Positions 6,373 to 39,111 are shown, numbered from the stretch's first letter. The stretch is 64,000 bases of DNA from Vulcanimicrobiota bacterium (GCA_050250895.1 JBFWNU010000001.1:2022210-2086209); one strand, 5' to 3'. The notes: a model not told the origin generated them from the letters alone. Made by a program: numbers and translations.

Positions 6373-6375
6373 CTG

Positions 6376-20788: not shown

Positions 20789-20796
20789 GAGGCTTA

Positions 20797-22044: not shown

Positions 22045-22066
22045 TTCTTCTGGTAGAATCTGGGAT

Positions 22067-23860: not shown

Positions 23861-24240
23861 AGCGAGCCTTTACCCTGGCCGAGACCATCTTTGCCACCTT
23901 CGTGTTGGCTCTGGTCATGATGACCCTGTTCAACATTTTTCCCTCGTCGGCCCTGGCGGTGAAGCGCGGCGAGATGCAGCTGCTGGCTGATTCGGTGGCC
24001 GAGGCTCACCTGGAACAACAACGAGCCATGGCTTTCGACAGTCTGGCCATCGCCGCTGAGAGCTACCTGCCCGACCAGGACCTGAAGGGTCTGCACTTCA
24101 AGCCCTCGCTGACCATTTCGGCGGTGCCGGGCTCTGACGTCGACCGGCTCAAGTCGGTTAACGTCAACGTTTACTGGTCTTTTCGCGAGCGCAACTACAA
24201 AGTCAGCCATGAGGCCTGGATTGTCAAAGTCGGCGAATAG
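23857..24240 (+). CDS. minor pseudopilin (prepilin-type N-terminal methylation domain, KRAFTLAETIFATFVLALVM)
   Basis: Class-III signal sequence with an FTLAE core but Ala rather than Gly at position -1. Overlaps the upstream gene by 4 nt. Confidence 0.6.
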   Translation: MKRAFTLAETIFATFVLALVMMTLFNIFPSSALAVKRGEMQLLADSVAEAHLEQQRAMAFDSLAIAAESYLPDQDLKGLHFKPSLTISAVPGSDVDRLKSVNVNVYWSFRERNYKVSHEAWIVKVGE

Positions 24241-24868
24241 AGCCTTCAGCCTGCTCGAGTTGTTGGTGGCTTCGGGCCTGCTCTTGCTGCTGGGAACCCT
24301 GTTTGTCTGGTTCTTGGTGCCGTCGGTGCGCTACTCCAGCCAGGGGGCGGCGCGCGTGGATCTCGAGCAGATGGTCACACTGGCGCTCGACCGAATCGGC
24401 AACGACCTGCAACACACGGTGGCCCGCGGGGTCTCGTATCACCCCTTGGCCGCGGCTGGCGCGAGCGACCCGGTGGTCTTGGCCATCGTGCCCCAGGCCG
24501 ATGTCGACGCCGACGGGCGACGCATCTGGTCGCAAGAAGTCGTCGTCTATTTTTGGGACCGTTCTGCCCACAAGCTTTATCGCCGGACCTGGCCGCCCGG
24601 TCCCCCGGCCAGCCTGAGCGTGCCCACGCCGTTACCTACCAACCGCCCGACCTCGTTCGGCGTGGCGGATTTGTTGGCACTCTGCGACCCCGCCGGAACT
24701 CGCTCGGTGGCCACGGATGTGACCCGATTTGATGTCTCGCACGCGGGGCCCGGTGCCTCGATTGTGCCTCCTCTAAGAATCGACCTGGAACTCTCGCGTC
24801 AGGTCGGCCCGAACCAGACCGAGACCTTCGCTAACACCAAAACCATCACTCTCCGGAACTCGCTATGA
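24209..24868 (+). CDS. minor pseudopilin (GspJ/PilW-like, NRAFSLLELLVASGLLLLL)
   Basis: Prepilin-type N-terminus, again with Ala at -1. Overlaps the upstream gene by 32 nt. Confidence 0.55.
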   Translation: MRPGLSKSANRAFSLLELLVASGLLLLLGTLFVWFLVPSVRYSSQGAARVDLEQMVTLALDRIGNDLQHTVARGVSYHPLAAAGASDPVVLAIVPQADVDADGRRIWSQEVVVYFWDRSAHKLYRRTWPPGPPASLSVPTPLPTNRPTSFGVADLLALCDPAGTRSVATDVTRFDVSHAGPGASIVPPLRIDLELSRQVGPNQTETFANTKTITLRNSL

Positions 24869-26340
24869 AAAAATGGTTGTTGTTGTTGACCTGGCTGACA
24901 CTGGCGCCGGCCTGGGGCGAGGATCACTACTACATCCATTTTCGCACCTATCCGCCGCGGGATGTGTTGGTCAAGCGCTCGAGCGGCACCGAGCAACCGG
25001 CCAGTGCCGAGCGGTATCAACTCACTCTCGAGAGCGGCGCTACGCCCGCCCTGAAATTGGTTTTCACCCATCCCGGCTTCCGCCAGCGAGAGGACTCTTT
25101 CTATGTGCAGGAGTTGCTCGAGCAGGGCAACCCGGTGGTGCAGGATGGCCAGACGATCTATACCTGGCCGCCCCCGGATCGAGCGCTCATCAGGCTGGAG
25201 CCCGAGAATGCCGTGCAAGCCCTGCGCTGGTGGGTCGTTTATCACCCCCTGGTTTTCGCCCTGGGCTTGCTGTTGAGCGGGGCCGTCACCCTCGGTGGAG
25301 CGCTCTATGTTCGCTCGAGTCGGCGAGACAAGCTTCGATTGGCGCAACTGGCTCAGGCCAGGGCCCAGGCCACCGCCAATGACCCGCTGGTCAGCGAGCA
25401 GGCAATGCTGGGATCCTATCGTATCGTGGATCGTCTGGGTGTCGGCGGGATGGCTGTCGTGTATAAGGCGGTGCCGGATTCTTCGCTCGATGCTCAGCAG
25501 GCCGTAGCCATCAAAGTCATCAAGCCCGAGTTTCTGGAAAATCGCGACTTTGTCGACAGGTTCCGGCGCGAGATCAAGCTCTCGACCAAATTGAATCATC
25601 CCAATATCGTACAGACCCTGGATTTTGGCGACCAGGACGGTTTGTTGTACGTCGTCATGGAACTGCTCGATGGTGGCGACCTCGACAATCAGATACCGCG
25701 TCAGGGTATGCCCTTCGACCAGGCCATGAACTTTTTTCGGCCCATCTTGCAAGGCTTACTCTACGCCCACGGGCGAGGCGTGGTCCATCGCGATCTCAAG
25801 CCCGACAACATCATGGTCACCTCTCGAGGAGAGGTCAAGATCGCCGATTTCGGTTTGGCCCGCGACCACGACGCCACCAAGCTTACCAAGACGGGCAGCG
25901 CCATGGGCACGCCAGCCTATATGCCCCCTGAACAACTTTCGGGGGTCGAGCCCCACCCCAGCGCCGACCAGTACTCCATTGGCATCGCCTTTTACGAGAT
26001 GCTGACCGGAAGACGCCCCTTCGAGGCCGACGATATCATGCAACTGCTGGTCAAGCAGATGTCGGAAGACCCGCCGCCGCCGACCCGTTTCAAAAAGTCT
26101 CTCAATCCGATCGTGGAGCAGATTTTATTGCGCATGCTCGAAAAGGACCCGGCCCGTCGCTTCGAGAGCTTGAGCCAGGTGCTCGAGGGCTTCGAGTGCG
26201 TGCTAGCGGGGCGCCCCTGGTCCATGCCTGCGGTCACGGTTCAGACCGAGACTCCCGGTCCCGGCTCTGGCAGCTTCAAGCTCCCGACCGCAAGTCAGCC
26301 GGTCGTGGATGAGGGCGATACGATCGGCTTCGGGGGATAA
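24865..26340 (+). CDS. receptor-type Hanks Ser/Thr protein kinase (N-terminal extracytoplasmic domain, one TM, C-terminal kinase)
   Basis: Kinase motifs GVGGMAVVYKA, AIKVIK, HRDLKPDNIM, DFGLA and GTPAYMPPE are present. Signal peptide plus a TM helix LVFALGLLLSGAVTLGGALYV. Overlaps the upstream pseudopilin gene by 4 nt. Confidence 0.9.
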   Translation: MKKWLLLLTWLTLAPAWGEDHYYIHFRTYPPRDVLVKRSSGTEQPASAERYQLTLESGATPALKLVFTHPGFRQREDSFYVQELLEQGNPVVQDGQTIYTWPPPDRALIRLEPENAVQALRWWVVYHPLVFALGLLLSGAVTLGGALYVRSSRRDKLRLAQLAQARAQATANDPLVSEQAMLGSYRIVDRLGVGGMAVVYKAVPDSSLDAQQAVAIKVIKPEFLENRDFVDRFRREIKLSTKLNHPNIVQTLDFGDQDGLLYVVMELLDGGDLDNQIPRQGMPFDQAMNFFRPILQGLLYAHGRGVVHRDLKPDNIMVTSRGEVKIADFGLARDHDATKLTKTGSAMGTPAYMPPEQLSGVEPHPSADQYSIGIAFYEMLTGRRPFEADDIMQLLVKQMSEDPPPPTRFKKSLNPIVEQILLRMLEKDPARRFESLSQVLEGFECVLAGRPWSMPAVTVQTETPGPGSGSFKLPTASQPVVDEGDTIGFGG

Positions 26341-26431: not shown

Positions 26432-27541
26432 TTAAATGGCTCGCAGGCTGGTGTATCCGCAAGCTTCGCAGACGCGGGCCACCACCGGCTTCCAGTGTGA
26501 GCCCACCTTCACCCGCAGCGGCCCCGCCTCGGTCTCGAGGGGACAGTCCTGGAACAGGCGCCCCTGGCTACAGCTGGGACAAGTCGGAACCGCCGCCGCG
26601 GGCCGGGGCAGTTGGTCGAGCAGGTCCTGGCTGCGCGCCTCGAGCCACTCGAGCAGAGAGTCCCAGGCCTGATCGCGCACCAGGCCCGCCTGGGAAAGGT
26701 CTTTGTCTAACCCGGTCGTCCAGACGATCGTCCTGATGCCCGGGGCCACTTCCTCAGACGAGGCAAAGCTGACGCCATCGAGGATGACCGTCAGCGGGGG
26801 ACGCTGACCCGTCTCTTCATAGCTCAAGACGGCGGAATGCAGCTCGCTGGCGGGCAGCTCGTAGCGCCGGCCCTCGGGACAATCCACCAGGCCGATGCGA
26901 AACCGTCCCGGCACGATGGCATAGCCTCGACACGACCCGAGCTGTACGGCCAGGCGGGCCGGCCGGCCGTGGATGGTAAGCTCTTGCACCGGGGCCAAAC
27001 CGCAGCGCTCGGCGATGAGGTTGGACTCGATCAGCTGGCTGGCCGGGGTGTAGAGCCTCTTGAGCATGGGAGCAGCCGTCTTGAGGTGAAAACGAAAGCC
27101 ACCCCGGTCGGGGCAGCTCTCGACTCTGGGAGATTCCGCCGCCTGCAATCGGTGGCCGTGCGATTCCACGGTCAGGCTCAGCGGATCGAGCGCCAGGGCG
27201 CCATTGACGGCGATGGCCAGCTCGTGGAGTTGGCGGCTGGGCTGACTGGAAAACAGACTCCGTAACGCCTCACCCTCAAGGGGGCTGCAATTGCTGAATA
27301 GCTCGAAGTCGTCGGCGTCCTGGCGGACATCGATACTGGTGGCTCCTCCGGCGATTGCCGAAGCGACCAGGTTGAGGGCGAAATGGTGGGGAGTCTCGAG
27401 CTGATATTTGGCCAGCTTGAGCCGCGCTTTGGCCGGGTCGAGGGTGAATTCGCCGCTGGAATCGCGTTCGCCGGCGCCGCGCTCGGCTAATTCCTTTTCT
27501 AGTTCCGACACACGGGCAGGTTCGAGCCACCGTTTGCGCAC
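26432..27541 (-). CDS. paralog family member P1: hypothetical protein with a degenerate GHKL/Hsp90-like N-terminal segment and a C-terminal Cys4 zinc ribbon
   Basis: N-terminus ...GEFTLDPAKARLKLAKYQLETPHHFALNLVASAIAGGATSIDVRQD resembles the MutL/HtpG ELVENAxDAGATxIxV block but lacks the Glu/Asn residues. Zinc ribbon CPSCSQG...CEACGY. Paralogous to genes 36492..37616 and 45580..46683. Confidence 0.5.
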   Translation of the reverse strand: MRKRWLEPARVSELEKELAERGAGERDSSGEFTLDPAKARLKLAKYQLETPHHFALNLVASAIAGGATSIDVRQDADDFELFSNCSPLEGEALRSLFSSQPSRQLHELAIAVNGALALDPLSLTVESHGHRLQAAESPRVESCPDRGGFRFHLKTAAPMLKRLYTPASQLIESNLIAERCGLAPVQELTIHGRPARLAVQLGSCRGYAIVPGRFRIGLVDCPEGRRYELPASELHSAVLSYEETGQRPPLTVILDGVSFASSEEVAPGIRTIVWTTGLDKDLSQAGLVRDQAWDSLLEWLEARSQDLLDQLPRPAAAVPTCPSCSQGRLFQDCPLETEAGPLRVKVGSHWKPVVARVCEACGYTSLRAI

Positions 27542-27581: not shown

Positions 27582-28685
27582 ATGTTTACGCCCGGAGTCG
27601 TCCTGCAAGATCGTTACCGCATCGACAAGCTGCTCGGCGAGGGCGGCATGAGCTATGTTTATCTGGCCCACCATCTGCAGCTCGATCGGCCGGTGGCGCT
27701 CAAGGTCGTCAAGCTGCTCTATGCTGACCCCAACGAGGCTCGCCAGCATGCCGAGCAACTGCAGGTCGAGGCTCGCATCATGGCTCGCCTCGACCACCCC
27801 AACCTGGCCCGAGTATTGGATATGTTCCTCGAGGGCAACATCCCGGTGCTGGTGATGGAGCTGATTACCGGCAGGGATCTCGAGCAGACGGCCATTCTGG
27901 CTCCCAAGCCCATCGCCCAACGGCGGGTGATGGCCTGGGCCCGGCAGCTGCTCGACGTGCTGGAATACCTTCACACCCAGGAGCCGCCGGTGATCGTGCG
28001 GGACCTCAAGCCGAGCAACGTGATGCTGGGTCACGACGGCCGCCTGCGCCTGATCGACTTCGGGTTGGCCAAAATGGCGTCGGGTCAGGGCGGCACCCGG
28101 GCCATCGTGCGGGGCATGGGCTCGGAAGGTTATGCACCGCTCGAGCAGTATGCCAAGGCCAGCACCGACGCGCGCTCGGATTTGTATGCCTTCGGAGCCA
28201 CCCTCTACTTCATGCTGACCGACGAGGTGCCCCCGCCGGCCTCGCTGCGGGTGGCTCACGGGGCGCCCGTCAAAGACCCGCGCATCATCAATGATTCGGT
28301 GACTCAAGACCTGTGGACCGCCATCGAGAAGCTGATGGCCCTCAATCCCGACGAGCGCCCGCCCACAGCCGCCGAGGCGCGCCGCTTGCTCGGCCTTGAC
28401 GAGGGTAAGCCCGACGACGGTCGCCGGCGCTGCGTTCAATGCTCAACCACTCTGACCACGGTCGTTCGGCGGGGGGTCGAGATCGACCGCTGCCCTGAGT
28501 GCGGCGGAGTCTGGCTGGATAAGGGAGAGCTCTCACGGTTGACCGAGACGGGCAAGCCCCAATCGCTGCCTCGACCCGCCGCCCTCGGCCCGGCCCCGAA
28601 GAAGAGGCCGAGGAAGGTCGACAGCGACGAACTCGAGACCAAGAGCCTGTGGCAGTCGCTGCTGGAGTTTCTGGACCTGGACTAA
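27582..28685 (+). CDS. Hanks-type Ser/Thr protein kinase with a C-terminal zf-TFIIB-like zinc ribbon. The catalytic loop reads VRDLKPSN instead of HRD.
   Basis: Kinase motifs GEGGMSYVYLA, ALKVVK, DLKPSN, DFGLAK and EGYAPLEQ are present. C-terminal ribbon CVQCSTTL...EIDRCPECGGVWLDKGEL matches the zf-TFIIB pattern. Confidence 0.85.
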   Translation: MFTPGVVLQDRYRIDKLLGEGGMSYVYLAHHLQLDRPVALKVVKLLYADPNEARQHAEQLQVEARIMARLDHPNLARVLDMFLEGNIPVLVMELITGRDLEQTAILAPKPIAQRRVMAWARQLLDVLEYLHTQEPPVIVRDLKPSNVMLGHDGRLRLIDFGLAKMASGQGGTRAIVRGMGSEGYAPLEQYAKASTDARSDLYAFGATLYFMLTDEVPPPASLRVAHGAPVKDPRIINDSVTQDLWTAIEKLMALNPDERPPTAAEARRLLGLDEGKPDDGRRRCVQCSTTLTTVVRRGVEIDRCPECGGVWLDKGELSRLTETGKPQSLPRPAALGPAPKKRPRKVDSDELETKSLWQSLLEFLDLD

Positions 28686-28700
28686 GGGCCTGACAGGGCC

Positions 28701-29858
28701 CTAAGCGTGGGCGCACTCGAAGAAATGGGCGTAGAGGTAAGGAAAGCCCAATAACTCGGCGGTCGGATGCAGGGGCGAGCCCAGGTGGCGTAGAGCGGCC
28801 ACATGCTGCACCCGATAGCTGTTGTTGTAGATGTAGCGGCTAAAATGTTCCTGCGTCTTGAGGATGTTCAACCCTAACTCGTCGAGATCGGCAAAGAGCT
28901 GGTCGGGCTTTTCGATCAGGCCGGGGAAGGTGGTCAGGAACAGGCGGGTGTCGGGGCCCGGAGCCATCGAGGCCACCGCGCACTCGAGAAAAAAGCGCAT
29001 CCCCTTGGCCGCGTAGGGGGGGTCGGTGGTGACCAGGTCGTAGGCGCCCTTCATCGAGTCGGGCACGCCGTGGCGCAGGTTGTGCTGGAGCACGGTTAGA
29101 CGGTCGCCGCCCTTGGCCTGAAGATAGGCCACCAGGTCCTCGTCGAGTTCGAGCACATCTACCTCGAAATCGCCGCCCTGATGCAGCAAAGCCAGCGAGA
29201 CCAGGTCGTCGTCCCCCAGCACCAGCACCCGAGCGCCCGGTTTGAGGGCAGCGATCATCCGCTCTGCCCGGGATTGGGTGGTGCGCGGGATGCAGAATTG
29301 CTGCTCGTAGCGCAGCTTGAGCGCGGGACGCTCGAACAACTGGCGCAGCAGAGCCAGATCCACGGTCTGGTTGTCGGCTTCCAGGTCGTGGGTCAGAAAG
29401 GCGCGCGTGTGGTCGAACATGAAGTCGACCAGGCGATGGGGCTCGTGCATCAGATGGCCGGCCTGAAGGGGGTTGCCGGTGAAGGGTCTGGGCATCCACC
29501 GTTGCCGAAAGATGTCTTCGGCCCGCCCCAGCAGCTCGAGCAAACCGGCCCGGTCGGTGGTGGTCTCGGGCCGCTTGCCCTCGAGTTTCTCCAGTTCGTT
29601 CTTCAGGCTCGCTTCCAGGCGGAGGATGAAGTCCGGAGGTTGGCGGTCTTCGTCGCCCACCAGCACATGGGCCTGGTGGGACCGCTGCAGCCAGGCGTCG
29701 TCAGGCAGAGCGGCCGGGCTCTGAAAGGGAGCCAGCCGCTCCCATCCCTCGGTGTCCATCAGGATGCGGGTTCCGTAGCTGAGGTTGGTCAGCAAGATCT
29801 CGCGTAGGGTGTTGCCGTAGCGGGCATCCAGGTGCTGGGTGAGCCAAACGTTCGCCAT
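28701..29858 (-). CDS. DUF43 / BpsA-like (N4-bis(aminopropyl)spermidine synthase family) putative aminopropyl- or methyltransferase
   Basis: VLVLGDDDLVSLALL and YDLVTTDPPYA are signatures of the DUF43/BpsA family. Start ATG at 29858 (MANVWLTQHLD...). The ORF-track extension to 29930 is not used. Confidence 0.6.
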   Translation of the reverse strand: MANVWLTQHLDARYGNTLREILLTNLSYGTRILMDTEGWERLAPFQSPAALPDDAWLQRSHQAHVLVGDEDRQPPDFILRLEASLKNELEKLEGKRPETTTDRAGLLELLGRAEDIFRQRWMPRPFTGNPLQAGHLMHEPHRLVDFMFDHTRAFLTHDLEADNQTVDLALLRQLFERPALKLRYEQQFCIPRTTQSRAERMIAALKPGARVLVLGDDDLVSLALLHQGGDFEVDVLELDEDLVAYLQAKGGDRLTVLQHNLRHGVPDSMKGAYDLVTTDPPYAAKGMRFFLECAVASMAPGPDTRLFLTTFPGLIEKPDQLFADLDELGLNILKTQEHFSRYIYNNSYRVQHVAALRHLGSPLHPTAELLGFPYLYAHFFECAHA

Positions 29859-29932
29859 CGCCGCCCATTGCCCGGCCAGTCGGATTCTTCCTGCTCGAAG
29901 GGTTGACCCGGCCACATGACAAAGTCGCATCT

Positions 29933-31603
29933 GTGACTACCGAGACCTCAACCAACCCCATCGATGACATCCAACGGCAACTGTTGACCATTATTGGCGG
30001 GCAGGACCCAGCCGAGGTGAAATTCCTGGTCGAAAGCCAACTGGCCATCGTGGCTCGCGAGCTCGAACAGGTGCCCGAGCGGGCCCAGCGGCGCGGTGAC
30101 GACTTCGTGCAGCAGATCTCCCCCTGCCTCGAGGCTTTGATGGAGCAGCTGAGACGCTATCAGACCTGGCTCAAAGAGCTCGACGAGTCACTCGAAGAGC
30201 ACGACACCGGCGGCATCATGCAGGCCTATGAAGAGAGCCAGGAGCTGGCTCCCGCCCTGGTCGCCGCCCAGGACGAATACGTCAAGTTCTTCGCCGGCCA
30301 CGGCCCCCACCAGAGCCAGTGGTCGAACGCCCTCGAGCAGGCAGCCCAGGCGGTGCGACGCGGCGAGGCCGGGCGCGAGCTGTGGCAAGAGCAAGTGGCC
30401 CACTATCAGCGACTGTTCCGTAAGGCGGGTGAAGAGGCTCAGGCCACCAAAATGCCGGGGCGGGCCATCCTGGCCGAGAATTACATCGCGGCCGTGGCTG
30501 CGCTGGAGACGCTGGCGGGCTCTGACCCTACTCAGGCCGAAGCTCTCGCCGAGCCGTTCAAGGCCCTCGACGAGGCTTCCAATGAGGCCGAGAAGATGAA
30601 CAAGCTGATGGTCGAAGCCAGCGCTTCGCCCACCTCGATTCCGGCCACCAACGTGCTGCTCACGGTGGTGCGGCAGGCGATGGCGGGCGAGCTCGAAATG
30701 CAGATCGCCGAGAGCGTGTTTGATGACTATTGCGAGATTTCCGACTCGTTCTGGGAAGGGTTCGAGCAGTCCATCCAGCGACCCATGGATTCGGCCCTGG
30801 TCCAAGACGAGATCCCGCGCACCATCGAATGTGCCGACGCCCAGTATGTGGCCCTCGAGGCCCTCTCCGAAGCCTTGCCAAAGCGCGACGCCCAGGCCGT
30901 CAACGAGGCGCTGCAGCAGCTCGAACAGGTAGCCATGAAACTCAACGAGTCGCGCGAGGTCTATGCCACCGCCGCTCAGCATCAGAGTCACACCATGTGC
31001 CCAGGTTGCGGTCGAGCCAATCCCCCCGAGAATCGCGTCTGCGAGGCTTGCGGTCAGACCCTGCAACGGATGGAGGAGGGGCTCGGCATCGCCTCGTCCA
31101 CTTTCAGCATGCTGACCGGCCCGGCGCTCGAAGAGAACCAGCAGATGGTCATGACCGAGAACGTGGCCAAGCTTTTCGATGCTTGTGACAACGTGGCCGT
31201 CGGCAAGATCACGCCCGAAGAGTTCGCCGAGGTGTTGACCTGGGCCGCCAAAGGTCTCAAGGAGTATGCCGACGAGATCGAGCAGATCGCCATTGATGTC
31301 TCGGACGAGTCGCAGATGTCCGACGAGATGCGCCAGGTTTGGCGCGAACAGCATCTGCCCTATCTGCACGAGGTCACGGCCTCGTTCGAGCAGGGCGTGG
31401 CCGAAGTCGAAGAGGGCCTGAGTTTTATGGCCAACTACCTCAACGAGCCCGACGACCAGCACCTCATCGACGGCGTGCGCGGAGTGTGGGAGGGGATGGG
31501 CACGATCCACCGGGCCCAGCTTTCGCTCGAGACCTCGGTCAAGACCCTCGACGACCTGCTCGAGGAGGCGGCCGAACAGGGCCTGCTAACGGAGGAGGGT
31601 TAG
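29933..31603 (+). CDS. acidic coiled-coil hypothetical protein with an internal Cys4 zinc ribbon (CPGCGRANPPENRVCEACG)
   Basis: Long open frame from TTG 29903. The GTG at 29933 is preferred as the start, but this is uncertain. Divergent from the DUF43 gene. Confidence 0.5.
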   Translation: MTTETSTNPIDDIQRQLLTIIGGQDPAEVKFLVESQLAIVARELEQVPERAQRRGDDFVQQISPCLEALMEQLRRYQTWLKELDESLEEHDTGGIMQAYEESQELAPALVAAQDEYVKFFAGHGPHQSQWSNALEQAAQAVRRGEAGRELWQEQVAHYQRLFRKAGEEAQATKMPGRAILAENYIAAVAALETLAGSDPTQAEALAEPFKALDEASNEAEKMNKLMVEASASPTSIPATNVLLTVVRQAMAGELEMQIAESVFDDYCEISDSFWEGFEQSIQRPMDSALVQDEIPRTIECADAQYVALEALSEALPKRDAQAVNEALQQLEQVAMKLNESREVYATAAQHQSHTMCPGCGRANPPENRVCEACGQTLQRMEEGLGIASSTFSMLTGPALEENQQMVMTENVAKLFDACDNVAVGKITPEEFAEVLTWAAKGLKEYADEIEQIAIDVSDESQMSDEMRQVWREQHLPYLHEVTASFEQGVAEVEEGLSFMANYLNEPDDQHLIDGVRGVWEGMGTIHRAQLSLETSVKTLDDLLEEAAEQGLLTEEG

Positions 31604-32806
31604 GGCGCGAAAGTGCCCGGTCACATCCTCGGCCTCGAGTTTTTGAAGCTCGAGTTTGGCCAGACCGGCTTTGCCCTGCCGCTTGTAGAGGCGGGCCAGC
31701 ACCGAGCGCATGGCCAGGCTGTTGAGATAAGGAGCGGCCAGACTTAAGCCGCGACGCAGCATGCGGGTGGCCTTCATTGGCTCGCCCAGTTGTTCCAGGG
31801 CCAGGGCCGCAGCCCAGCACAGCCGATAGTCGGGTTGGGTTTCGGCTTGAGCCTGCCGGGCCACATCCAGGGCTTGCTGCGGGCGCTCCAGGCGAGCGGC
31901 CACTTCGGCGCACAGCCCGCCCAGATAGAGCTTTCCATCGGGGGGTAGCCCGGGTCGCTCGAACAGCTCGAGCCAACCCTCCAGGGCTTTTTCGGGCTGG
32001 CCAAGGTAGTGCCGGCACGTGCCGCTTAGATAGGCCGACTCGACCGGGTAGTCCTGGCCCAGGCTTTCGAGGATGGGTAAGGCCTGGTCGTAGCGCTGGA
32101 ACCTGACCAGGGCGGCCGCCTGGTCGATTGGCCCGGCCTCATAACCAGCCACCGAACCTTCCACGAAGGGTTGGGCCAGGCGCCGGTACTCGGTGGGGGT
32201 ATAGCCCCCTAGAACCGAGTAGGCCACCGTGGTCATCAAGGCCTCGAGCCGGCACTCTCGGGCGAACTGTTCGGCCTCTTGCCAGAGCTCGCCGGTGGGG
32301 GTGAGAAAATAGTCGATGTCGAGGTCGAACAGAACGGGCTGATCGGGCCGGGGCAGATTCTCGAAGGTCCCAAGCTCGAAGGGGATGCCCATCACCGTTC
32401 CTTCGACCCGACCGTCGACCAGCTTGAGGTGGTGATATTCGGCCAATTCCAGGTCGAACCAGCCGTTGAGATGGGCGCGAGCCCAGGTCAACAGCGAGCC
32501 TTCCACCAGGGAGGGGGGGATGACCCAGGTCAAGCGGTTGACGATGCCTTCGCGGATGGCCGGGTAGAGGTAGTTTCCGCAGTGCAGCCCGCCCCAGGGC
32601 AGATAGGCGTTGCCGGTCAGGCCCTGGTCGCGCGCCTCGTCCAGGCTCTGGCAGGCGGCCAACCTGGCCAGAGTGGTGTCATCCAGTCCATCGGTACCGA
32701 CATCGAGGTGAGCGTCGACATGATAGCACCAGGCAGCCTTGATCCCGGCCCGCTTCCAGACAAAGTAGGCTTCGCAGTGCTCTTCCATGGCCACCCCGGT
32801 GGTCAC
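31586..32806 (-). CDS. UPF0489-family (arginase/deacetylase-fold-like) domain protein with C-terminal TPR repeats
   Basis: N-terminus ...AAWCYHVDAHLDVGTDGL... resembles UPF0489 (the fHiDaHlD motif). The C-terminal half contains TPR-like helices. Overlaps the GNAT gene by 4 nt. Confidence 0.5.
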   Translation of the reverse strand: MTTGVAMEEHCEAYFVWKRAGIKAAWCYHVDAHLDVGTDGLDDTTLARLAACQSLDEARDQGLTGNAYLPWGGLHCGNYLYPAIREGIVNRLTWVIPPSLVEGSLLTWARAHLNGWFDLELAEYHHLKLVDGRVEGTVMGIPFELGTFENLPRPDQPVLFDLDIDYFLTPTGELWQEAEQFARECRLEALMTTVAYSVLGGYTPTEYRRLAQPFVEGSVAGYEAGPIDQAAALVRFQRYDQALPILESLGQDYPVESAYLSGTCRHYLGQPEKALEGWLELFERPGLPPDGKLYLGGLCAEVAARLERPQQALDVARQAQAETQPDYRLCWAAALALEQLGEPMKATRMLRRGLSLAAPYLNSLAMRSVLARLYKRQGKAGLAKLELQKLEAEDVTGHFRALTLLR

Positions 32807-33366
32807 GAACGCTTTTGACGACGCTCTTTCATGGCCTCTCGGCGCTGCTTGAGGCCGGCCAGCCCCTCGGCCACCTGGGCCCGATCTTGGCGAGCCTTCT
32901 CGACCCGCGCCATGAGCGCCTCACCCTCGGGGGTGCACGGTCTCACCAGGCGATAGGCCTCGAGGAAGAAATTGTTGCGCACGGCCGCTTCCCAGCGGGG
33001 ATTGTTGGCGGCCACCTCGCCGGCCATGAAGTCGATGCCCAGCGAGGCGGTCAGTTCGGTGGCTGCGTCAAAGAGGGCGTGACCGACCCCTTTGCCCCAA
33101 TACTTGGGCAGGGCGGCGATGTCTTCCACAAAGGTCTGGCGCCGGCCCAGATCGTCTTGATGGTACAGGTTGAGCAGTAAATAGCCGATCGGCTCACCCC
33201 TGGCCTTGTCGCGAGCCACTAGAAAACGATAGAGCCCCCTGCGCACGTAGTTCTTGAGTTCGGCGAACTCGCTCCGTACGTAGGTGGCTCGGTCTTCGGT
33301 GGTATGCCGCAGGGCGTCTAAAGTGTGAAGCGACGCCGTGGCCGCAAGTTCTTCGATGAAGGACAT
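32803..33366 (-). CDS. GNAT-family N-acetyltransferase
   Basis: Core motifs ...LLLNLYHQDD...GKGVGHALFDAATELTASLGIDFMAGEV. Start at ATG 33366 (MSFIEEL), with GTG 33408 as the alternative. The ORF-track N-terminal extension is not used. Confidence 0.7.
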   Translation of the reverse strand: MSFIEELAATASLHTLDALRHTTEDRATYVRSEFAELKNYVRRGLYRFLVARDKARGEPIGYLLLNLYHQDDLGRRQTFVEDIAALPKYWGKGVGHALFDAATELTASLGIDFMAGEVAANNPRWEAAVRNNFFLEAYRLVRPCTPEGEALMARVEKARQDRAQVAEGLAGLKQRREAMKERRQKRS

Positions 33367-33415
33367 TTCATGCGGCTCGGCGTCGCCGATCTCATACCAC
33401 GTTTCCACGTGGTGG

Positions 33416-33808
33416 TTAGGCGCGGAGGCTGATTCCGAGGTGCATCTCGGCGTGGGGGCCGAACTGAGGGCCACCGTGACCGCCGAAGGGGCTGAACAGG
33501 TTGCCCATGGTGTTGCCGAACCAGCCACCCATGTCGAAGCCGCAACCGCGTGCGCCGTTCATTCCGCAATGCGAAACCGGGCCACACTGGTGTTGGGGAC
33601 AACGATTACCGGCGAAGGCGTTGCGACAACGACCGCAGCCTTGGGCTCCACCGCTGATGCGGTTTGCTAGAGCGTTGTTGAGGTTGGCCTGCGACTGCAT
33701 GAGCTGTTGCTGGGCCGGATTCATTCGAGGGGCTCGGGGACCTCCACCGCCAAAGATTCCACTCGCGATGTTAAGTCCTGCGCTGATGCCAAGCATTTCA
33801 ATAGCCAA
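33416..33808 (-). CDS. Gly/Cys-rich small protein (130 aa, 8 Cys, GGGG tracts), function unknown
   Basis: TTG start at 33808 with GAGGAGA 10 nt upstream. High GC3 in this frame. An AT-rich promoter-like region lies upstream. Motifs CGRCRN...RCPQHQCGPVSHCG...GCGFDMGGWFG. Confidence 0.4.
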   Translation of the reverse strand: MAIEMLGISAGLNIASGIFGGGGPRAPRMNPAQQQLMQSQANLNNALANRISGGAQGCGRCRNAFAGNRCPQHQCGPVSHCGMNGARGCGFDMGGWFGNTMGNLFSPFGGHGGPQFGPHAEMHLGISLRA

Positions 33809-33829
33809 TTTACCCGTCTCCTCTTCTGT

Positions 33830-33925
33830 TTGTGCTTGTTATCATGTATTGCTTCCCAGGGGCCTAAAGTCCAGGTCTGTTTTGTGAAATATTTGTTAAC
33901 TGCGTTAACATGGCCTGCAATTTTG
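33830..33925. promoter_or_regulatory. unusually AT-rich intergenic segment with two HpaI-type palindromes, GTTAACtgcGTTAAC. Probably the promoter or operator of the Gly/Cys-rich peptide gene.
   Basis: The local AT content is far above the window average. GTTAAC appears as a direct repeat 3 nt apart. Confidence 0.35.
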
Positions 33926-34693
33926 TTACGGAAAATAGAGAGTGAAGTGATCCGGGTCTTGATAGGCGATCGTATCGAGGGGTTCGCCCAGTTGGCGATA
34001 CTTTCGCAGGATGGTCTGACCGGCTGCATTAAGCTTCGCAGACCAGTCGGCTCCCTCCTCCAGGTCGTATTGGGGCACCTCGCCCCGTTTGGACGTCACC
34101 ATGCGAGCCTGGCCCAGCACCCCGGCCACTTCGGGCTTGTCGTCGAGGGGATAGAGGTAGACCTTTTTCTCGACCAGGTCTGGGCCCTCGTAGGTGTACG
34201 AGACGAGCCCCTCGGCCCGATGGGCCGCCAGGTCGTAGCCAGCCACCAATTCCTTGAGATGGGACGGCAGCAGCGACAGGTCGCGGGCTCTTAGATACAG
34301 CTTGAACTGGCCTTCTTGAAGGTCCCAGCCCAACCCGTAGAAGCGAAAGTCCGGCCCGTACTCTTGGGGAACGGCGATGCCTCGTTCGGCCAGCACCGGG
34401 GCGGCCCCGGCGAAGGCCTCTTCGGGGTGCGTGACCGAGCCGTAAGCCATGCGCGAAGAGTTGACCTTGTCGCCGTCGACGCGGTGGCTATAGGTATAGT
34501 AGCTGAAATGCTCATAGCCACCCTCTGAGGTCTCGGCGAACGACTGGGCCAGGCGAAAGCAGGTCTCGAGATAGTCTTTTTCGAGGCTCGACAGGCGCCG
34601 GCGAAAAGGAAAGAAGTGGCGGGTGTGCCAGCTGAGCAGATGGCGATGATAGTTGAGGATCGAGTAATCCACGCCGCCTGATTCGACCGCCAC
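33926..34693 (-). CDS. hypothetical protein (~255 aa; ...VDYSILNYHRHLLSWHTRHFFPF...YGLGWDLQEGQFKLYLRARD...)
   Basis: The 3' portion of ORF 33926..35548 is protein-like. The upstream half of that ORF is antisense to the thioredoxin-like gene and is rejected. The start is probably GTG 34693, with GTG 34672 as an alternative. There is no in-frame ATG nearby. Confidence 0.45.
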   Translation of the reverse strand: MAVESGGVDYSILNYHRHLLSWHTRHFFPFRRRLSSLEKDYLETCFRLAQSFAETSEGGYEHFSYYTYSHRVDGDKVNSSRMAYGSVTHPEEAFAGAAPVLAERGIAVPQEYGPDFRFYGLGWDLQEGQFKLYLRARDLSLLPSHLKELVAGYDLAAHRAEGLVSYTYEGPDLVEKKVYLYPLDDKPEVAGVLGQARMVTSKRGEVPQYDLEEGADWSAKLNAAGQTILRKYRQLGEPLDTIAYQDPDHFTLYFP

Positions 34694-34747
34694 ACTTTCG
34701 ATACATTCTGACCAGATTTTTATGGGTCTTTGAACTATCCTGAGGTT

Positions 34748-35683
34748 ATGACTAGAAGAATCCTCGCCACCCTCCTGCTCTGTTTGACCCTCCCCCTGGC
34801 GGCCGACGAGGCCGGAATCATCTGGTTTGGCACCCTCGAGGACGGTCTCAAAGAGGCGGCCCGCACGCACAAGCCGATTCTGTTGATGTCGGCAGCCCCG
34901 CACTGTCACAACGTCCCGGGCATCTGGTGACCGGCTAAGCAAGACGCCGACAGGAGTTTCCTGTCGCAACCGGAGGTCATCGCAGCCTCCCGAAAGTTTG
35001 TCTGCGTGCGGCTGGCCACTTATGAGAACGCCAAGGAAGGAGCCTATTTGAAGGCTTTGTTCCAGACCGGCTCGGGGGAGCTGGAGAATAGTGTCTTTGC
35101 CATCTTGAGCCCCGACGCCAAGGCCTATCTGGTGCCGGCCGGGCGCTCGCCTCGGATGGTCTTCGGCACCGCCCAGCGCATGGCCCAGAGCATGGAAGAG
35201 ATCGGTTCTCGCTATCACGGCAGCACCGCCACTTCGGACCGGTTGCCCAAAATGGCCAATGTCCGCCTGGCTCTCAATGTGGCCGCCTGTGACGACGTGC
35301 CCCTGGTGATCGCGGTGGGTCGCACCGCCAAAGAAGAACGGGCCCTCGAGCAGCGGCTGGCCAACTGGGCCTGGAATTCTTACTTCGCCGGGCGGGCCGA
35401 GTATGCCACCGCCACCAACCTGGCCGAGCTTTCGATGATCAGCGGCGCCAAGCCGGCCAGCGGCTATGTGGTGGTCCAACCCGACCGCTTTGGCCAGCAG
35501 GGCACCGTCATCGCGACCATCGACGGCGATGCGAAGTTGCCCGACCAATTATGGGAGGCCATCGGGCGCTATCAGTCGGCCGGCCAAAAGGATACCGGTT
35601 CGCACATTTCGGCGGGACGCCAGAAGGGTGTTTACTGGCAGACCGTCATTCCCGTCACCGACCCCGGTCCGCGAGGTCGTTAG
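34748..35683 (+). CDS. secreted thioredoxin-fold protein (Thioredoxin_7 / DsbD-gamma-like) with a C-terminal extension. An in-frame TGA at 34928-34930 interrupts the frame, so it is either a selenoprotein candidate or a pseudogene.
   Basis: ORFs 34730..34930 and 35006..35683 are in the same frame. Joined, they read ...IIWFGTLEDGLKEAARTHKPILLMSAAPHCHNVPGIW-[TGA]-PAKQDADRSFLSQPEVIAASRKFVCVRLATYENAKEGAYLKALF.... This matches the i.W..leeAl..AkkegKPvlvdfyAdWCgpC...dpeV...ln..FV.vkvD thioredoxin-domain pattern across the stop. A 7-bp hairpin, CGACAGG-agttt-CCTGTCG, lies 17 nt downstream of the TGA. Confidence 0.45.
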
Positions 35684-35707: not shown

Positions 35708-36610
35708 GTGATCGAACTCGAACGCTACGGCCCGGTCGAGGCCTTCCACCACGGGCGCTCGCCCTTCGGATTCTTGAAGCCGGTCATGTCGGTGCGCTGC
35801 TACCAGGTCGACGGTCTTCTGATCGACTCTGGGTTGAGCGTCTTCTCCTCGGCCGTCGGCCGCTGGGCCGTGGATAGGGGGGCGCGTCGCGCCCTCATCA
35901 CCCATCACCACGAGGACCACAGTGGCAACTCCAAAACCCTGCAGGGACACGGGCTCGAGGTGCTGGCCTCGCAACGAACCAACGACTGGGTGGAACGGGG
36001 CTTTTCGATCCGACTTTATCAACAGCTGGTGTGGGCGCCCGCCCCTCCCACCCGGCTGAGCCCGCTACCGCAGGTGGTCGAGACCGACCGCTATCGTTTC
36101 GAAGCTCTGCCCGCCCCCGGGCATTGCGACGATCAGATGGTCTTCTTCGAGGCCGACCAGGGGTGGCTCTTTTCGGGTGATGCCTTTCTGGCTCGCCGCA
36201 TCAAGTATTTTCGGGCCGACGAGGATTTCGCCGCCACCGTCGACTCGTTGCGCCGGTTGACTCGATTGGACTTTGGTGACCTCTTCTGCGCCCACCGTCC
36301 CGTGATGAAGACCGGCCAAGAGGCGCTGGCCGCCAAGCTGCAATTTCTCGAAGACCTCGAAGGCCGGGTGCGCGAGTTACATCAACAGGGCCTCGGTCCG
36401 CGAGCCATCACTCGCCAGCTGCTGGGGCCCGAGTCGTGGCTGTTCTATCTCTTTTCCTGGGGTGATCTATCCAAACTCAACCTGGTGCGCTCTATCCTTT
36501 TTGGACCGACGCTTCGAGCGGACTACCCGCCAGTCGGCGCCACTGCAGGGCGGCCTCTCGGCGAGAGCTACGAAAAAGCAAGCCAAAGTGACCTAGAACC
36601 TGGCCCGTGA
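35708..36610 (+). CDS. metallo-beta-lactamase fold hydrolase
   Basis: HxHxDH motif ITHHHEDHSGN, together with downstream His/Asp ligands (PGHCDD, SGDAF, CAHRPV). GTG start. Its 3' end overlaps the convergent gene by ~119 nt, so one of the two ends may be mis-set. Confidence 0.75.
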   Translation: MIELERYGPVEAFHHGRSPFGFLKPVMSVRCYQVDGLLIDSGLSVFSSAVGRWAVDRGARRALITHHHEDHSGNSKTLQGHGLEVLASQRTNDWVERGFSIRLYQQLVWAPAPPTRLSPLPQVVETDRYRFEALPAPGHCDDQMVFFEADQGWLFSGDAFLARRIKYFRADEDFAATVDSLRRLTRLDFGDLFCAHRPVMKTGQEALAAKLQFLEDLEGRVRELHQQGLGPRAITRQLLGPESWLFYLFSWGDLSKLNLVRSILFGPTLRADYPPVGATAGRPLGESYEKASQSDLEPGP

Positions 36611-37616
36611 GGAGCGCGAACCGGGCCCGCAACTGCTCGACCAGTTCGCCGAAGGCGGCATCTTCTCGCAGCGAGATTTGCGACAGATCGGTGGTCAGGT
36701 GGTCGGCCACCACCACCGCCGAGGCGCCCGGCGGGCCCAGGTCGACGGTCTTGGGCGGGCATAAATAACCGCGCCGGATGACGGTCAGGGTGCCTTTGCC
36801 CTCGAGCTGCAGCGGCAGGCTCAACCAGGCCCAACCACGCTCGGGCCCGACTCGGACCAGGGTGTCCATCGAGTCCAGGCCCAGCTCGCGGTGAACGGTC
36901 AGTTCGGGGTCGTAGCTGAGCCGGGCCCGCGTGGGCGGAGCTTCCAGGCTGCCCGGTTCGATCATCTGGCGACCCAGGCAGAATTGCTGGCTGGGGGTCA
37001 GGGGTTGGTTCACTTGGCGGCCATCGAGTTCGAGAGGAATCGGGCAGTGGACAAAGCCCCTGCTGACCATACGATGCTCGTCGGCCAATCCCGCCTGAGG
37101 GCGAAATCGATGCCAGAAGTCGGCCTTCACCGAGGGACGTCCCAGGTGAATTCGCAGGCCGGGGCGGTCGCGTACCGACAGGCGCATGGGACCGAACCGC
37201 TCGACCAGGCCCGACTCGAGCACCACCAGCCAATAGCGCGGTCCGTCACGAATCGAGCAGGCGGCCAGCGAATAGCCCTGTCCCAGGCTGCTGCGCAGAC
37301 CGATCACCAGGTCGCCGACGGGATCGTTGCCGGCCACCCTCAGGGCGGCCAGCTCCTGGGCCAGTTCCACTCCTTCGGGCAGAACGGCGCCGGGAGCGTC
37401 GATCATCAACTCGCCCGGGCGCAGCCGCAGCGAAAGAGAGTTGGCTCCCAGCCCTACCAGCCCCTGAAGCAGTTTGACGGCCACGAAACCCGGGCCGGGC
37501 AAGCGATACTGGTCGAGCACCTTCTGGGCCCGCTCGGCATCCAGGGCAAAACGCGAGCTGGAATCGACTTCTCCAACGGCCCGAAAGCTCTCTAGAAGCT
37601 CGTGCAGCTCGCTCAT
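36492..37616 (-). CDS. paralog family member P2 (degenerate GHKL-like N-terminus; CPIPLELDGRQ motif)
   Basis: ATG at 37616 (MSELHELLESFRAVGEVDSSSRFALDAERAQKVLDQYRLPGPGFVAVKLLQGLVGLGANSLSLRL...). The N-terminus and the CPIPxxLDGR block are shared with gene 45580..46683, and the N-terminus also with gene 26432..27541. Confidence 0.5.
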   Translation of the reverse strand: MSELHELLESFRAVGEVDSSSRFALDAERAQKVLDQYRLPGPGFVAVKLLQGLVGLGANSLSLRLRPGELMIDAPGAVLPEGVELAQELAALRVAGNDPVGDLVIGLRSSLGQGYSLAACSIRDGPRYWLVVLESGLVERFGPMRLSVRDRPGLRIHLGRPSVKADFWHRFRPQAGLADEHRMVSRGFVHCPIPLELDGRQVNQPLTPSQQFCLGRQMIEPGSLEAPPTRARLSYDPELTVHRELGLDSMDTLVRVGPERGWAWLSLPLQLEGKGTLTVIRRGYLCPPKTVDLGPPGASAVVVADHLTTDLSQISLREDAAFGELVEQLRARFALLTGQVLGHFGLLFRSSRREAALQWRRLAGSPLEASVQKG

Positions 37617-37674
37617 TCGGCCTGCTTCGCTCTGCCAACCAGGGTCTTCCCCCTCGGGGCCGAAAGCCGCGAAC

Positions 37675-39111
37675 ATGACCGAACATGCGCCCGCCGATTC
37701 CCACCCCCAAGAGGGCACCAGCCATGGAGCCTCCTGGCTGCTGCCAGCCATCATCGTGGGGGTTATCCTGGGCGGTCTGGTGGGGGCACAATGGCCTCAA
37801 TTCGCGATTCATTTCGAGTTTTTTGGCGAGCTCTTCCTCAATGCCCTGAAGATGCTAATCGTACCCCTGGTGGCCAGTTCCATGATCGCGGGCATCGCCA
37901 GTCTCGGCGATGTGCGCAAGCTGGGCAAGCCCGGACTGGTGACGGTCCTTCTTTACGCCGCCACCACAGCGCTGGCCGTTTTCATCGGCATGATCTTCGT
38001 CAATCTGCTAAAGCCCGGCGCGGGGGTCCAGGTGGAAGGGTCCAACAGGGCGCCCGCCACGCGCCTGGTCAAACAGATCGAAGGCGAGTGGGTGGTCTTC
38101 GACAAGGGCGATAACCTTTACACCCTCGACGGCGAGCCCGTGCGAGCGGTGGTGGCCCGTTTCAAAGACGAGCACTCGGCCCATGAAGCCGCCAAAGAAG
38201 GCGAGAAGTCGCTCTTCGGCGTGGTCGCCAAGGTGATGCGCATGATGGTCTCGGCCAACATCATCCAGTCGGCCGCCGCCACCGATATCCTGCCCCTGAT
38301 CTTCTTTTCGCTGTTGTTTGGCGGGGTGTTGACCACCCTGGGGCAAAAGGGCCAGATGGTGCTCGAGTTCTTCGCGGGCGTGAGCGAAGCCATGATGGCC
38401 ATGGTCAACCTCATCATGTATGTGGCGCCCCTTGGTATCTTCTCGCTGATTGCCGCTCGGCTGGGTAAAGCCGGCGGCGGTAGCGCCTTCGTCGAAGAGG
38501 TCACCAAGCTGGGCAACTATGCCCTGTGCGTCATCCTGGCCTTGCTCGTGCACTCTATCTTGCTGATCGGGCTCTATGCGCTGCTGGCCCGGCGTAGCCC
38601 GGTGGCCTTTTTGGCTAAGCTGGCCAAAGCTCTGACCACCGCTTTTTCCACCGCTTCTTCCTCGGCCACTTTGCCGCTGACCATGGAATGTTGTGAAGAG
38701 GCAGGAGTGTCGCCGGAAGCCACCAGTTTCGTGCTGCCCCTGGGAGCCACCGTGAATATGAATGGAACCGCTCTCTACGAGTCGGTGGCAGCCATCTTTA
38801 TCGCTCAGGCTTTCGGAATACCCCTGGGCATGGAAGGCCAGTTGATTGTCTTCGTTACGGCGACCCTGGCAGCTATCGGAGCGGCCGGCATTCCCGAGGC
38901 GGGTCTGGTGACGATGTTGATCGTGCTCAACGCCGCCAACCTGCCCACCGCAGGAGTGGGGCTGCTGCTCTCGATCGATTGGTTTCTGGACCGCTGCCGG
39001 ACCTCGGTCAACGTCTGGGGAGACGCGGTGGTGGCGGGCTGTGTCGACGAAATGGTGTTCTCCAAGCTCGACCTATCGGGCGAGATGCACCACGCCTCTA
39101 GCGTACGGTAG
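37675..39111 (+). CDS. dicarboxylate/amino acid:cation symporter (DAACS family; GltP/DctA-like)
   Basis: Polytopic protein with DAACS signatures: ...LKMLIVPLVASSMIAGIASLG..., ...FSTASSSATLPLTMECCEE..., ...NMNGTALYESVAAIFIAQAFG..., ...GIPEAGLVTMLIVL.... ATG start at 37675. Confidence 0.85.
   Translation: MTEHAPADSHPQEGTSHGASWLLPAIIVGVILGGLVGAQWPQFAIHFEFFGELFLNALKMLIVPLVASSMIAGIASLGDVRKLGKPGLVTVLLYAATTALAVFIGMIFVNLLKPGAGVQVEGSNRAPATRLVKQIEGEWVVFDKGDNLYTLDGEPVRAVVARFKDEHSAHEAAKEGEKSLFGVVAKVMRMMVSANIIQSAAATDILPLIFFSLLFGGVLTTLGQKGQMVLEFFAGVSEAMMAMVNLIMYVAPLGIFSLIAARLGKAGGGSAFVEEVTKLGNYALCVILALLVHSILLIGLYALLARRSPVAFLAKLAKALTTAFSTASSSATLPLTMECCEEAGVSPEATSFVLPLGATVNMNGTALYESVAAIFIAQAFGIPLGMEGQLIVFVTATLAAIGAAGIPEAGLVTMLIVLNAANLPTAGVGLLLSIDWFLDRCRTSVNVWGDAVVAGCVDEMVFSKLDLSGEMHHASSVR

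Follow-up and report, generated by a model that had tools for sequence, protein, structure and literature searches.

The stretch of DNA analyzed here, a window of 64,000 nucleotides from a Vulcanimicrobiota bacterium (GCA_050250895.1, JBFWNU010000001.1:2022210-2086209), carries at positions 28,701 to 33,925 a row of five genes, designated A to E, which its recurrence in related genomes identifies as a conserved, functionally linked cluster. These genes encode a BpsA-like transferase (A), an acidic zinc-ribbon protein (B), a peptide-arginase-like domain fused to tetratricopeptide repeats (TPRs; C), a GNAT N-acyltransferase (D), and a small protein rich in glycine and cysteine (E). With moderate confidence, we propose that the region is a protein-modification module conserved in the Eremiobacterota (Vulcanimicrobiota/Xenobia), in which arginine would be converted to ornithine on a glycine-rich protein and the product then modified further. 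The original prediction for this stretch had placed five open reading frames (ORFs) here, all of which are present at its coordinates, and had suggested the modification of either a small molecule or a peptide; the peptide or protein side of that suggestion has held, whereas the small-molecule or polyamine side is the weaker of the two.

The proposal starts from gene C (31,586 to 32,788, minus strand), which encodes a 400-residue protein with a peptide-arginase-like catalytic domain (residues 1 to ~220 of the 406-residue maximal ORF) followed by a C-terminal TPR domain. The UPF0489 family (PF12640), which had been described for this gene as having an arginase/deacetylase fold, indeed has an arginase fold but is now known as the peptide arginase family, whose members convert arginine to ornithine in peptides made on ribosomes and then modified after translation (RiPPs) (PMC12703449, PMC10028609). 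Its characterized members are OspR, KspR, PhaR, FlmR, OhkR, BipC, and PbsE (PMC12703449, PMC12707348, PMC8784127). The motifs that define the family, EEH(N/H)EAF, DxHxD, and LDIDLDYFSC, hold the six ligands of a binuclear manganese site, in OspR His12, Asp39, His41, Asp43, Asp165, and Asp167, and the glutamate of the OspR EEH motif has been proposed to stabilize the guanidinium group (PMC10028609). In an alignment of 38 homologs of C (23 to 78% identity), this metal site is intact. EEHCEAYF at residues 8 to 15 matches EEH(N/H)EAF, with H10 invariant and MEEHxEAYF, including the glutamate of EEH, as the majority consensus; DAHLD at residues 31 to 35 matches DxHxD, with D31, A32, H33, L34, and D35 all invariant; and FDLDIDYF at residues 160 to 167 matches LDIDLDYF, with D161, D163, and D165 invariant and spaced as D165 and D167 are in OspR. 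The best structural match of C is likewise OspR, with an arginase alpha/beta/alpha fold and 166 of 305 OspR residues aligned, and in the model, DIDYF is followed by a short beta/alpha segment and then by TPR helices from about residue 226. A profile of the C family searched against the PDB matched OspR (8brp_A, E value 8e-11) over its N-terminal part and many TPR proteins strongly over its C-terminal part; the TPR repeats named in the original prediction are therefore strong by profile, although weak from the single sequence.

An exhaustive HMMER search with the catalytic domain of C found 538 relatives among 1.84 billion cluster representatives. Most of the top relatives are 400 to 690 residues long, TPR repeats were found in 8 of 10 that were sampled, and these eight are annotated only as 'tetratricopeptide repeat protein'. 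Some distant TPR-fused relatives score above the Pfam UPF0489 cut-off (P0230 with 29.2 bits and P0250 with 30.9 bits), and no TPR domain is on record for the described peptide arginases in the literature searched. Fusions of a UPF0489-like domain with canonical TPRs (450 to 690 residues; P0212, P0230, P0250, and P0272) also occur outside the Eremiobacterota, P0212 being from a Nitrospinota metagenome-assembled genome (MAG). One sampled relative, from an Elusimicrobiota MAG (P0291/P0333, 681 to 737 residues) and annotated as 'PqqD family peptide modification chaperone', unites three parts in a single protein: a radical S-adenosylmethionine (SAM) domain, a segment resembling arginases, and a PqqD domain of the kind that recognizes RiPPs.

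A lack of conserved co-occurrence among the genes had been named beforehand as a result that would refute the original prediction, but co-occurrence was found across 53 nonredundant loci, drawn from seven metagenomic contigs with C homologs and 47 loci from a scan of species-representative genomes. Hidden Markov models (HMMs) of A to F were run against all ORFs of these loci, and the following counts refer to the 40 loci in which C is flanked by 3 kb or more on either side. Gene D adjoins C in 32 of the 40, in either order and frequently with 4-nucleotide (nt) overlaps; B lies within 6 kb of C in 28, which makes it the most constant partner after D, and A lies within 8 kb in 19. Identity across linked loci ranges from 29 to 78%, and a single genome holds three to five paralogous loci. 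All loci, like the window itself, come from Eremiobacterota/Vulcanimicrobiota/Xenobia MAGs, although the record titles of a few name other organisms, with no other phylum represented among the species-representative genomes scanned. The architecture seen in the window is E, D, and C, in some loci preceded by F (described below), then B on the opposite strand, then A. Elsewhere, the order is B, A on the opposite strand, C, and D, or B, C, and D, or C, D, and B, with C and D alone or C alone in further loci, and one more arrangement runs D, A, D, C, and A, followed by B on the opposite strand. Flanking genes differ between loci, and gene order is shuffled between paralog types. Because the gene set has been kept through rearrangement, paralogy, and divergence to ~30% identity, inherited synteny does not explain the linkage, which is functional. 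At L026 (7,658 to 14,293) and L030 (872 to 7,655), two GNATs and two BpsA-like genes surround one arginase-TPR gene; the second BpsA copy there has a degenerate GDED or GDDE motif together with DPPY, and no Gly-rich ORF was detected upstream.

Among the genes of the cluster, E (33,416 to 33,808, minus strand) is the most plausible substrate of C, given where it lies and how it is composed. It encodes a basic protein of 130 residues with 27 glycines, 6 cysteines, 8 arginines, no lysine, and 3 acidic residues. A small/hydrophobic N-terminus of about 20 residues leads into the segment GGGGPRAPRM and a helix rich in Q and N, after which come a part rich in cysteine and a tail rich in glycine. The protein is real and conserved: 19 of 19 orthologs contain the motif GGG-x-R-x-P-R-M, with G21 to G23, R25, P27, R28, and M29 invariant in the alignment, and all 19 also share the small/hydrophobic N-terminus and the Q/N-rich helix, while the Cys-rich and Gly-rich parts vary. 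Seven database homologs of E share their contigs with C homologs. The public annotation of E (P0115, 102 residues, 'hypothetical protein AB7S38_10690') begins at Met29 and leaves out the 28 N-terminal residues, including the invariant GGGGPRAPRM. The RiPP-like logic suggested for this small product is thus supported by its conservation and by its position as the most plausible substrate. A known precursor or bacteriocin family was sought for E and set aside, as neither E nor three Gly-rich paralogs matched any Pfam or NCBIfam family, even at E values up to 1; the same holds for F.

Across module types, including that of the window, at least 23 of the 40 loci have a Gly-rich protein nearly devoid of acidic residues encoded immediately upstream of the module, and such a protein is also seen at L027, L031, and L032. 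In the paralog types, the protein in this position is 160 to 280 residues long. Its N-terminus typically reads MGGVVRGIGRAIGGVARGIG... or MGRVVSGVARGISRVARG..., with arginines clustered at positions 3 to 28 in a GxxxG-type repeat and lysines thereafter, followed by a glycine-zipper-like middle and a Q/M/P/Y-rich tail with an often Cys-rich end, such as CCRCHCQFSC. Each module paralog type carries its own type of Arg-bearing, nearly acid-free Gly-rich protein, and this pairing is the pattern expected of enzymes and their substrates, although as evidence for such a relationship, it is circumstantial. At L007, where a distant module holds B, A, C, and D, a gene downstream of the GNAT (5,346 to 7,385, plus strand) encodes a 679-residue Gly/Ala-rich protein with a HENGH (HExxH-like) motif and long Gly-rich C-terminal repeats, perhaps a protease or perhaps a bigger protein related to the Gly-rich candidate substrates.

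The covariation of Gly-rich type with module type also bears on an alternative in which the target of C, D, A, and B is B itself or a protein other than E, and E is a co-transcribed structural, membrane, or bacteriocin-like glycine-zipper protein. Gene B would be a candidate target, since only D accompanies C more constantly (B is nearby in 28 of 40 loci) and B bears invariant arginines (R43, R51, R362, and R528), and no Gly-rich ORF was found in the scan of the module types at L021 to L023, L026, and L030. Yet B is a large, folded, helical protein unlike the known substrates of peptide arginases, the arginines of the Gly-rich proteins are concentrated in their conserved part, and the type of candidate substrate changes with the paralog type of the module, all of which leaves this explanation possible but doubtful.

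With E as the substrate, the proposed modification would proceed as follows. The TPR domain of C would recruit the protein substrate, and its catalytic domain, as a manganese-dependent, peptide-arginase-like ureohydrolase, would hydrolyze the guanidino group of specific arginines in E to yield ornithine and urea, the likely targets being R25 and R28 of GGGGPRAPRM and, in the paralogous modules, the Arg-rich N-terminal GxxxG repeats. The translationally coupled GNAT, D, would then acylate or acetylate the newly formed delta-amine, and A, where present, would add an alkyl group, probably aminopropyl, or a methyl group to an amine of the same substrate. The literature offers a precedent: in selidamides, an arginase of PF12640 makes ornithine that a GNAT then acylates (PMC8784127), and the ornithine of RiPPs is known to undergo acetylation, acylation, methylation, or hydroxylation (PMC12703449). 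As for its role, the product could be active on membranes or resemble a bacteriocin, could belong to the envelope, or could bind metal.

Gene A (28,701 to 29,858, minus strand) encodes a 385-residue transferase with a Rossmann-type domain and the GDDD and TDPPY motifs. The DUF43/BpsA call of the original prediction survived the HMM search, with a match to Pfam BpsA_C (PF01861) at an E value of 1.8e-18 and 67.1 bits against a cut-off of 27, and phmmer against the PDB returned N4-bis(aminopropyl)spermidine synthase (5xnc, E value 8.9e-13), with VLGDDDL and TDPP aligned. A regular-expression scan found the GDDD motif, which in Tk-BpsA (Gly157 to Asp160) positions the aminopropyl group of decarboxylated SAM (PMC12979288), in 22 of 26 A homologs. 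In a pairwise alignment of A with 5xnc (chain numbering offset by +20), Asp225 of TDPP and Tyr290 are matched, and Tyr316 lies outside the aligned region. It is plausible that A transfers an aminopropyl or a methyl group to an amine.

The same features could place the genes in small-molecule polyamine metabolism, with C as an agmatinase-like ureohydrolase, A as a branched-polyamine aminopropyltransferase, D as a polyamine N-acetyltransferase, B as a binder of polycations, to which its extreme negative charge is suited, and E as unrelated or merely co-regulated. The sole characterized PF01861 enzymes make branched polyamines, ureohydrolases and GNATs occur in polyamine pathways (PMC12979288), and the weak PDB matches of D are a probable N-acetyltransferase and a thialysine acetyltransferase (E value ~0.003). 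We nevertheless consider this explanation unlikely. The motifs of C are of the peptide-arginase-specific EEHxEAF and LDIDLDYF type, whereas arginases and agmatinases have GGDHS and SxDxDxxDP. In structure, C comes nearest to OspR, an enzyme that does not take free arginine (PMC10028609), and C is fused to a protein-binding TPR domain. Moreover, A is without the acidic carrier tail of BpsA, an Arg-bearing Gly-rich gene is persistently adjacent across paralog types, and no other polyamine gene (e.g., speD, speE, or speA) was seen in the fetched loci.

Chemistry of the polyamine kind could also be built onto protein. It is conceivable, if rather improbable, that a lineage-wide, multi-paralog system constructs polyamine-like side chains on ribosomally made glycine-zipper proteins: the TPR-arginase would turn arginine into ornithine, the BpsA-like enzyme would aminopropylate the ornithine amine, possibly repeatedly, the GNAT would cap or lipidate the amine, and the acidic zinc-ribbon protein would act as a chaperone for the polycationic, membrane-active product. 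Such a system, if it exists, would be a bacterial counterpart of hypusine or of the polyamine-modified residues of the silaffin type.

Gene D (32,803 to 33,408, minus strand) encodes a GNAT N-acyltransferase of 201 or 187 residues, depending on its start, that is tightly coupled to C. The GNAT call was borne out by a match to Pfam Acetyltransf_1 (PF00583; E value 1.9e-11, 44.7 bits against a cut-off of 20.7), and YWGKGVG corresponds to the acyl-CoA-binding xxGxG motif; among PDB sequences, D has only the weak matches given above. The translational coupling of D with C would suit a reversible acyl switch, in which D acetylates or acylates its target, be it E, B, or an unlinked protein, at the N-terminus or on a lysine and C is the matching deacylase, as the arginase fold is shared with metal-dependent deacetylases and the Gly-rich paralogs have conserved lysines after the arginine block. 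C, however, retains all six ligands of the binuclear arginase site (His, Asp, His, Asp, Asp, Asp) within peptide-arginase motifs, the EEH glutamate, for which guanidinium stabilization has been proposed in OspR, belongs to its majority consensus MEEHxEAYF, and the characterized enzymes of PF12640 are all arginases. In addition, no GNAT accompanies C and E at the orthologous loci L001 and L004, and we regard an acyl switch as distinctly unlikely. That the genes are neighbors through synteny inherited in one lineage, with no functional connection, is highly improbable, for although 47 of 47 genome loci come from a single phylum, the set occurs in at least five different orders and orientations, down to ~30% identity, in three to five paralogous copies per genome, and between unrelated flanks.

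Gene B (29,933 to 31,603, plus strand) encodes a 556-residue, all-helical, very acidic protein with a net charge of -61 (-55 to -76 across homologs) and an isoelectric point of 4.3. In its center is a zinc ribbon, CPGCG...CEACG, after which comes a disordered linker. The zinc ribbon had been predicted for B, and its CxxC...CxxC pattern is invariant in 28 homologs, although it falls below the Pfam threshold (DZR, 23.4 bits against 27.3). A structure search returned only generic four-helix bundles and no enzymatic fold. Since B is extremely acidic, helical, and without an enzymatic fold, it is probably a scaffold or chaperone rather than an enzyme, and in the proposed module, it would serve the basic, hydrophobic substrate in that capacity.

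Several observations weigh against the conversion of arginine to ornithine and its further modification as set out here. For C, the curated models are not reached: Pfam UPF0489 gave an E value of 0.011 and 16.5 bits against a cut-off of 27, so that the UPF0489 call stands by motifs and structure but not by Pfam score, and NCBIfam NF052474 ('peptide arginase, FlmR/OhkR family') gave an E value of 4.8e-7 and 29.5 bits against a cut-off of 350. The dimerization domain of the OspR type is also absent from C, with the TPR domain in its place. Because the motifs and fold fit, the scores fall short of the HMM thresholds, and one structural element is lacking, C is best placed, on these comparisons, as a divergent branch of the peptide-arginase family. 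For E, the assignment as substrate is based on adjacency and composition only, and none of the known families of RiPP precursors matches E or its paralogs, which are 130 to 280 residues long. The cluster also has no conserved exporter or protease, and therefore, proteins may be modified here by a route other than RiPP biosynthesis in its classical sense. There is no GNAT at two orthologous loci, L001 and L004, some loci contain C alone, and the acyl group used by D is not readable from its sequence. For A, the tail (...GFPYLYAHFFECAHA), which in homologs has the common C-terminus PYLYAHFFEC, contains no acidic run, Glu259 of BpsA falls opposite a glycine in the pairwise alignment with 5xnc, and A also resembles N-methyltransferases at lower significance (PADLOC mad2, E value 3e-10).

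The starts of A, B, and C were refined by alignment with homologs and annotated proteins. The maximal ORF of A (28,701 to 29,930, 409 residues) probably begins at ATG 29,858, as its homologs align from residue 25 of the ORF; that of B (29,903 to 31,603, 566 residues) probably begins at GTG 29,933, which gives 556 residues identical to P0122; and that of C (31,586 to 32,806, 406 residues from GTG 32,806) probably begins at ATG 32,788, which gives 400 residues identical to P0001. The maximal ORF of D spans 32,803 to 33,528 on the minus strand, and its likely start, as read from the sequence, is GTG 33,408 (201 residues) or ATG 33,366 (187 residues), whereas E begins at TTG 33,808 with a ribosome-binding site of the GGAGG type 9 nt upstream. 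A is divergent from B across 74 bp (29,859 to 29,932; 62% GC), an arrangement kept in orthologous loci, and B and C converge, with their 3' ends overlapping by 18 nt. The original prediction had put E at the end of the row, but the minus-strand order is E, D, and C, so that E is its first gene, directly downstream of F; the 4 nt reported between D and C are either a 4-nt overlap (GTGA) or a 14-nt gap, depending on the start chosen for C. GC content by codon position is coding-like for A to D and F (GC3 of 0.75 to 0.83) and weaker for E (0.66). Upstream of E lies a 117-bp spacer (33,809 to 33,925) with 42% GC compared with ~63% in the window. The AT-richness that had been attributed to a promoter of E is thus real, although a sigma-70 consensus scan of 28,400 to 35,000 found no site, including in the spacer; by its base composition, the spacer is possibly the promoter region of the E-D-C row. 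No second module was found within the window with the HMMs of A to F. A defense system was also considered for these genes and set aside, as the sole outcome of a PADLOC scan of A to F was that A matched a generic methyltransferase (mad2, E value 3e-10).

Gene F (33,926 to 34,672, minus strand) encodes a conserved protein of 248 residues that matches no known family and is an accessory member of the window-type cluster. It is present in 10 of the 53 loci, with homologs 51 to 59% identical directly upstream of E at L003, L005, L009, L010, L013 to L016, L020, and L052. Its very strongly conserved motifs are FSYYTYSHR, FYGLGWD, FKxY, YLYP, and TLYFP, and no Pfam, NCBIfam, or PDB match was found for it, including when PDB sequences were searched with a profile. 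Being aromatic, strand-like, and repeated, these motifs may recall ABBA prenyltransferases, a likeness on which we base no claim.

Two Ser/Thr protein kinases adjoin A in the window (24,865 to 26,340 and 27,582 to 28,685, both on the plus strand), the second of which has a C-terminal zinc ribbon of the TFIIB type, and at L005, the gene after A encodes a large kinase/GAF/GGDEF protein. Three proteins of 369 to 420 residues, apparently paralogs and with no Pfam match, are encoded on the minus strand at 26,432 to 27,541, 36,492 to 37,754, and 45,580 to 46,710; they have a common N-terminal 'GEF(T/A)LD...A...L..YxL' segment, two of them flank the cluster, and one has a zinc-ribbon-like CxxC...CxxC tail. 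Upstream of the kinases, a run of genes resembling those for type II secretion or type IV pili (19,748 to 24,868, plus strand) encodes, among others, a T2SSF protein and several small proteins whose hydrophobic N-termini resemble those of prepilins, and an FHA-adenylate/guanylate cyclase protein is encoded at 20,797 to 22,044.

Peptide arginases were discovered only in 2020, and few have been characterized; to our knowledge, all of these act on short RiPP precursors, and we know of no case in which the branched-polyamine synthase family has been linked to peptide modification. If the proposal is correct, peptide-arginase chemistry would extend to a TPR-guided enzyme acting on glycine-rich proteins of 130 to 280 residues, a peptide arginase would be partnered with a homolog of branched-polyamine synthases, and the system would exist in several diverged copies per genome in an almost entirely uncultivated phylum. 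It would also give a function to hundreds of entries, some of them relatives from other phyla, whose annotation now reads only 'tetratricopeptide repeat protein' or 'hypothetical protein'. The cluster represents a concrete, cheaply testable set of enzymes and substrate, with possible new tools for installing and derivatizing ornithine in proteins.

The closest known systems are the selidamide pathways (kamptornamide, ksp, with KspR/KspN, and phaeornamide, pha, with PhaR/PhaN; PMC8784127), in which, as here, an arginase of the PF12640 type stands beside a GNAT and a ribosomal substrate with arginine near its N-terminal region. E, as the substrate candidate, D, and C are contiguous on one strand, so that arginase, GNAT, and candidate substrate are encoded together as in selidamide clusters, and the order of steps described there, arginine to ornithine followed by N-delta-acylation by the GNAT, is the order proposed here. 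Unlike in selidamide pathways, there is no precursor of the NHLP or Nif11 type, as Pfam and NCBIfam gave no family for E and its Gly-rich paralogs, and neither the window genes nor the called genes of related loci include a lanthionine synthetase of the LanM type. A further mark of selidamide clusters is a GNAT from a RiPP-associated clade that uses medium-chain acyl donors, whereas D matches only the generic Acetyltransf_1 model. The arginase of the window cluster is TPR-fused and below family cut-offs, its candidate substrates are Gly-rich proteins of 130 to 280 residues, and the cluster adds the acidic zinc-ribbon protein, the BpsA-like transferase, and F and is multi-copy. When C is set beside the individual enzymes, OspR (landornamide; PDB 8BRP), FlmR/OhkR, and BipC/PbsE, all three manganese-binding motifs are also found in C, whereas the OspR dimerization domain (Ser170 to Ser234), which is thought to form the substrate cleft, is replaced in C by ~180 residues of TPR. 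The homology of A to BpsA (PF01861; PDB 5XNC) extends over the Rossmann domain, with GDDD kept and, in the pairwise alignment, the TDPP aspartate (Asp225) and Tyr290 matched; the C-terminal acidic aminopropyl-carrier cluster of BpsA (Glu339 and Asp342 to Glu345) is absent, and Glu259 is unaligned. Unlike BpsA, A comes from a host that is not obviously a thermophile and lies in a protein-modification cluster, as proposed here, rather than a polyamine pathway.

Two further comparisons concern function. In microcin C (MccD/MccE1, MccE2; PMC8323819), a ribosomal peptide is aminopropylated by an enzyme with the class I methyltransferase fold, and a GNAT of the cluster acetylates an amine of the product. 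MccD, however, moves a carboxy-aminopropyl group from SAM to a phosphoramidate and is followed by a separate decarboxylase, there is no arginase, the GNAT serves self-immunity, and the likeness to the window genes drawn here is one of function. The aspartyl/asparaginyl beta-hydroxylase AspH and O-GlcNAc transferase, like C, have a TPR domain attached to the catalytic part, which in their case acts on the side chains of long or folded proteins; both are among the fold-search matches to the TPR part of C, but their catalytic domains and chemistry are unrelated, and the comparison is an analogy only. We found no description of this cluster in the literature on Eremiobacterota RiPPs, on PF01861/DUF43, or on aminopropyl and ornithine RiPPs. 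The claim that no described pathway combines these families is too broad in one respect and accurate in another. Undescribed in the literature searched are the TPR-fused arginase, its association with PF01861, the acidic zinc-ribbon protein, the Gly-rich, glycine-zipper-like substrate families, and the multi-paralog organization in Eremiobacterota, whereas the logic of an arginase paired with a GNAT is already known from the selidamides (PMC8784127), as is the decoration of one RiPP with an aminopropyl group, carried out by other enzymes, from microcin C.

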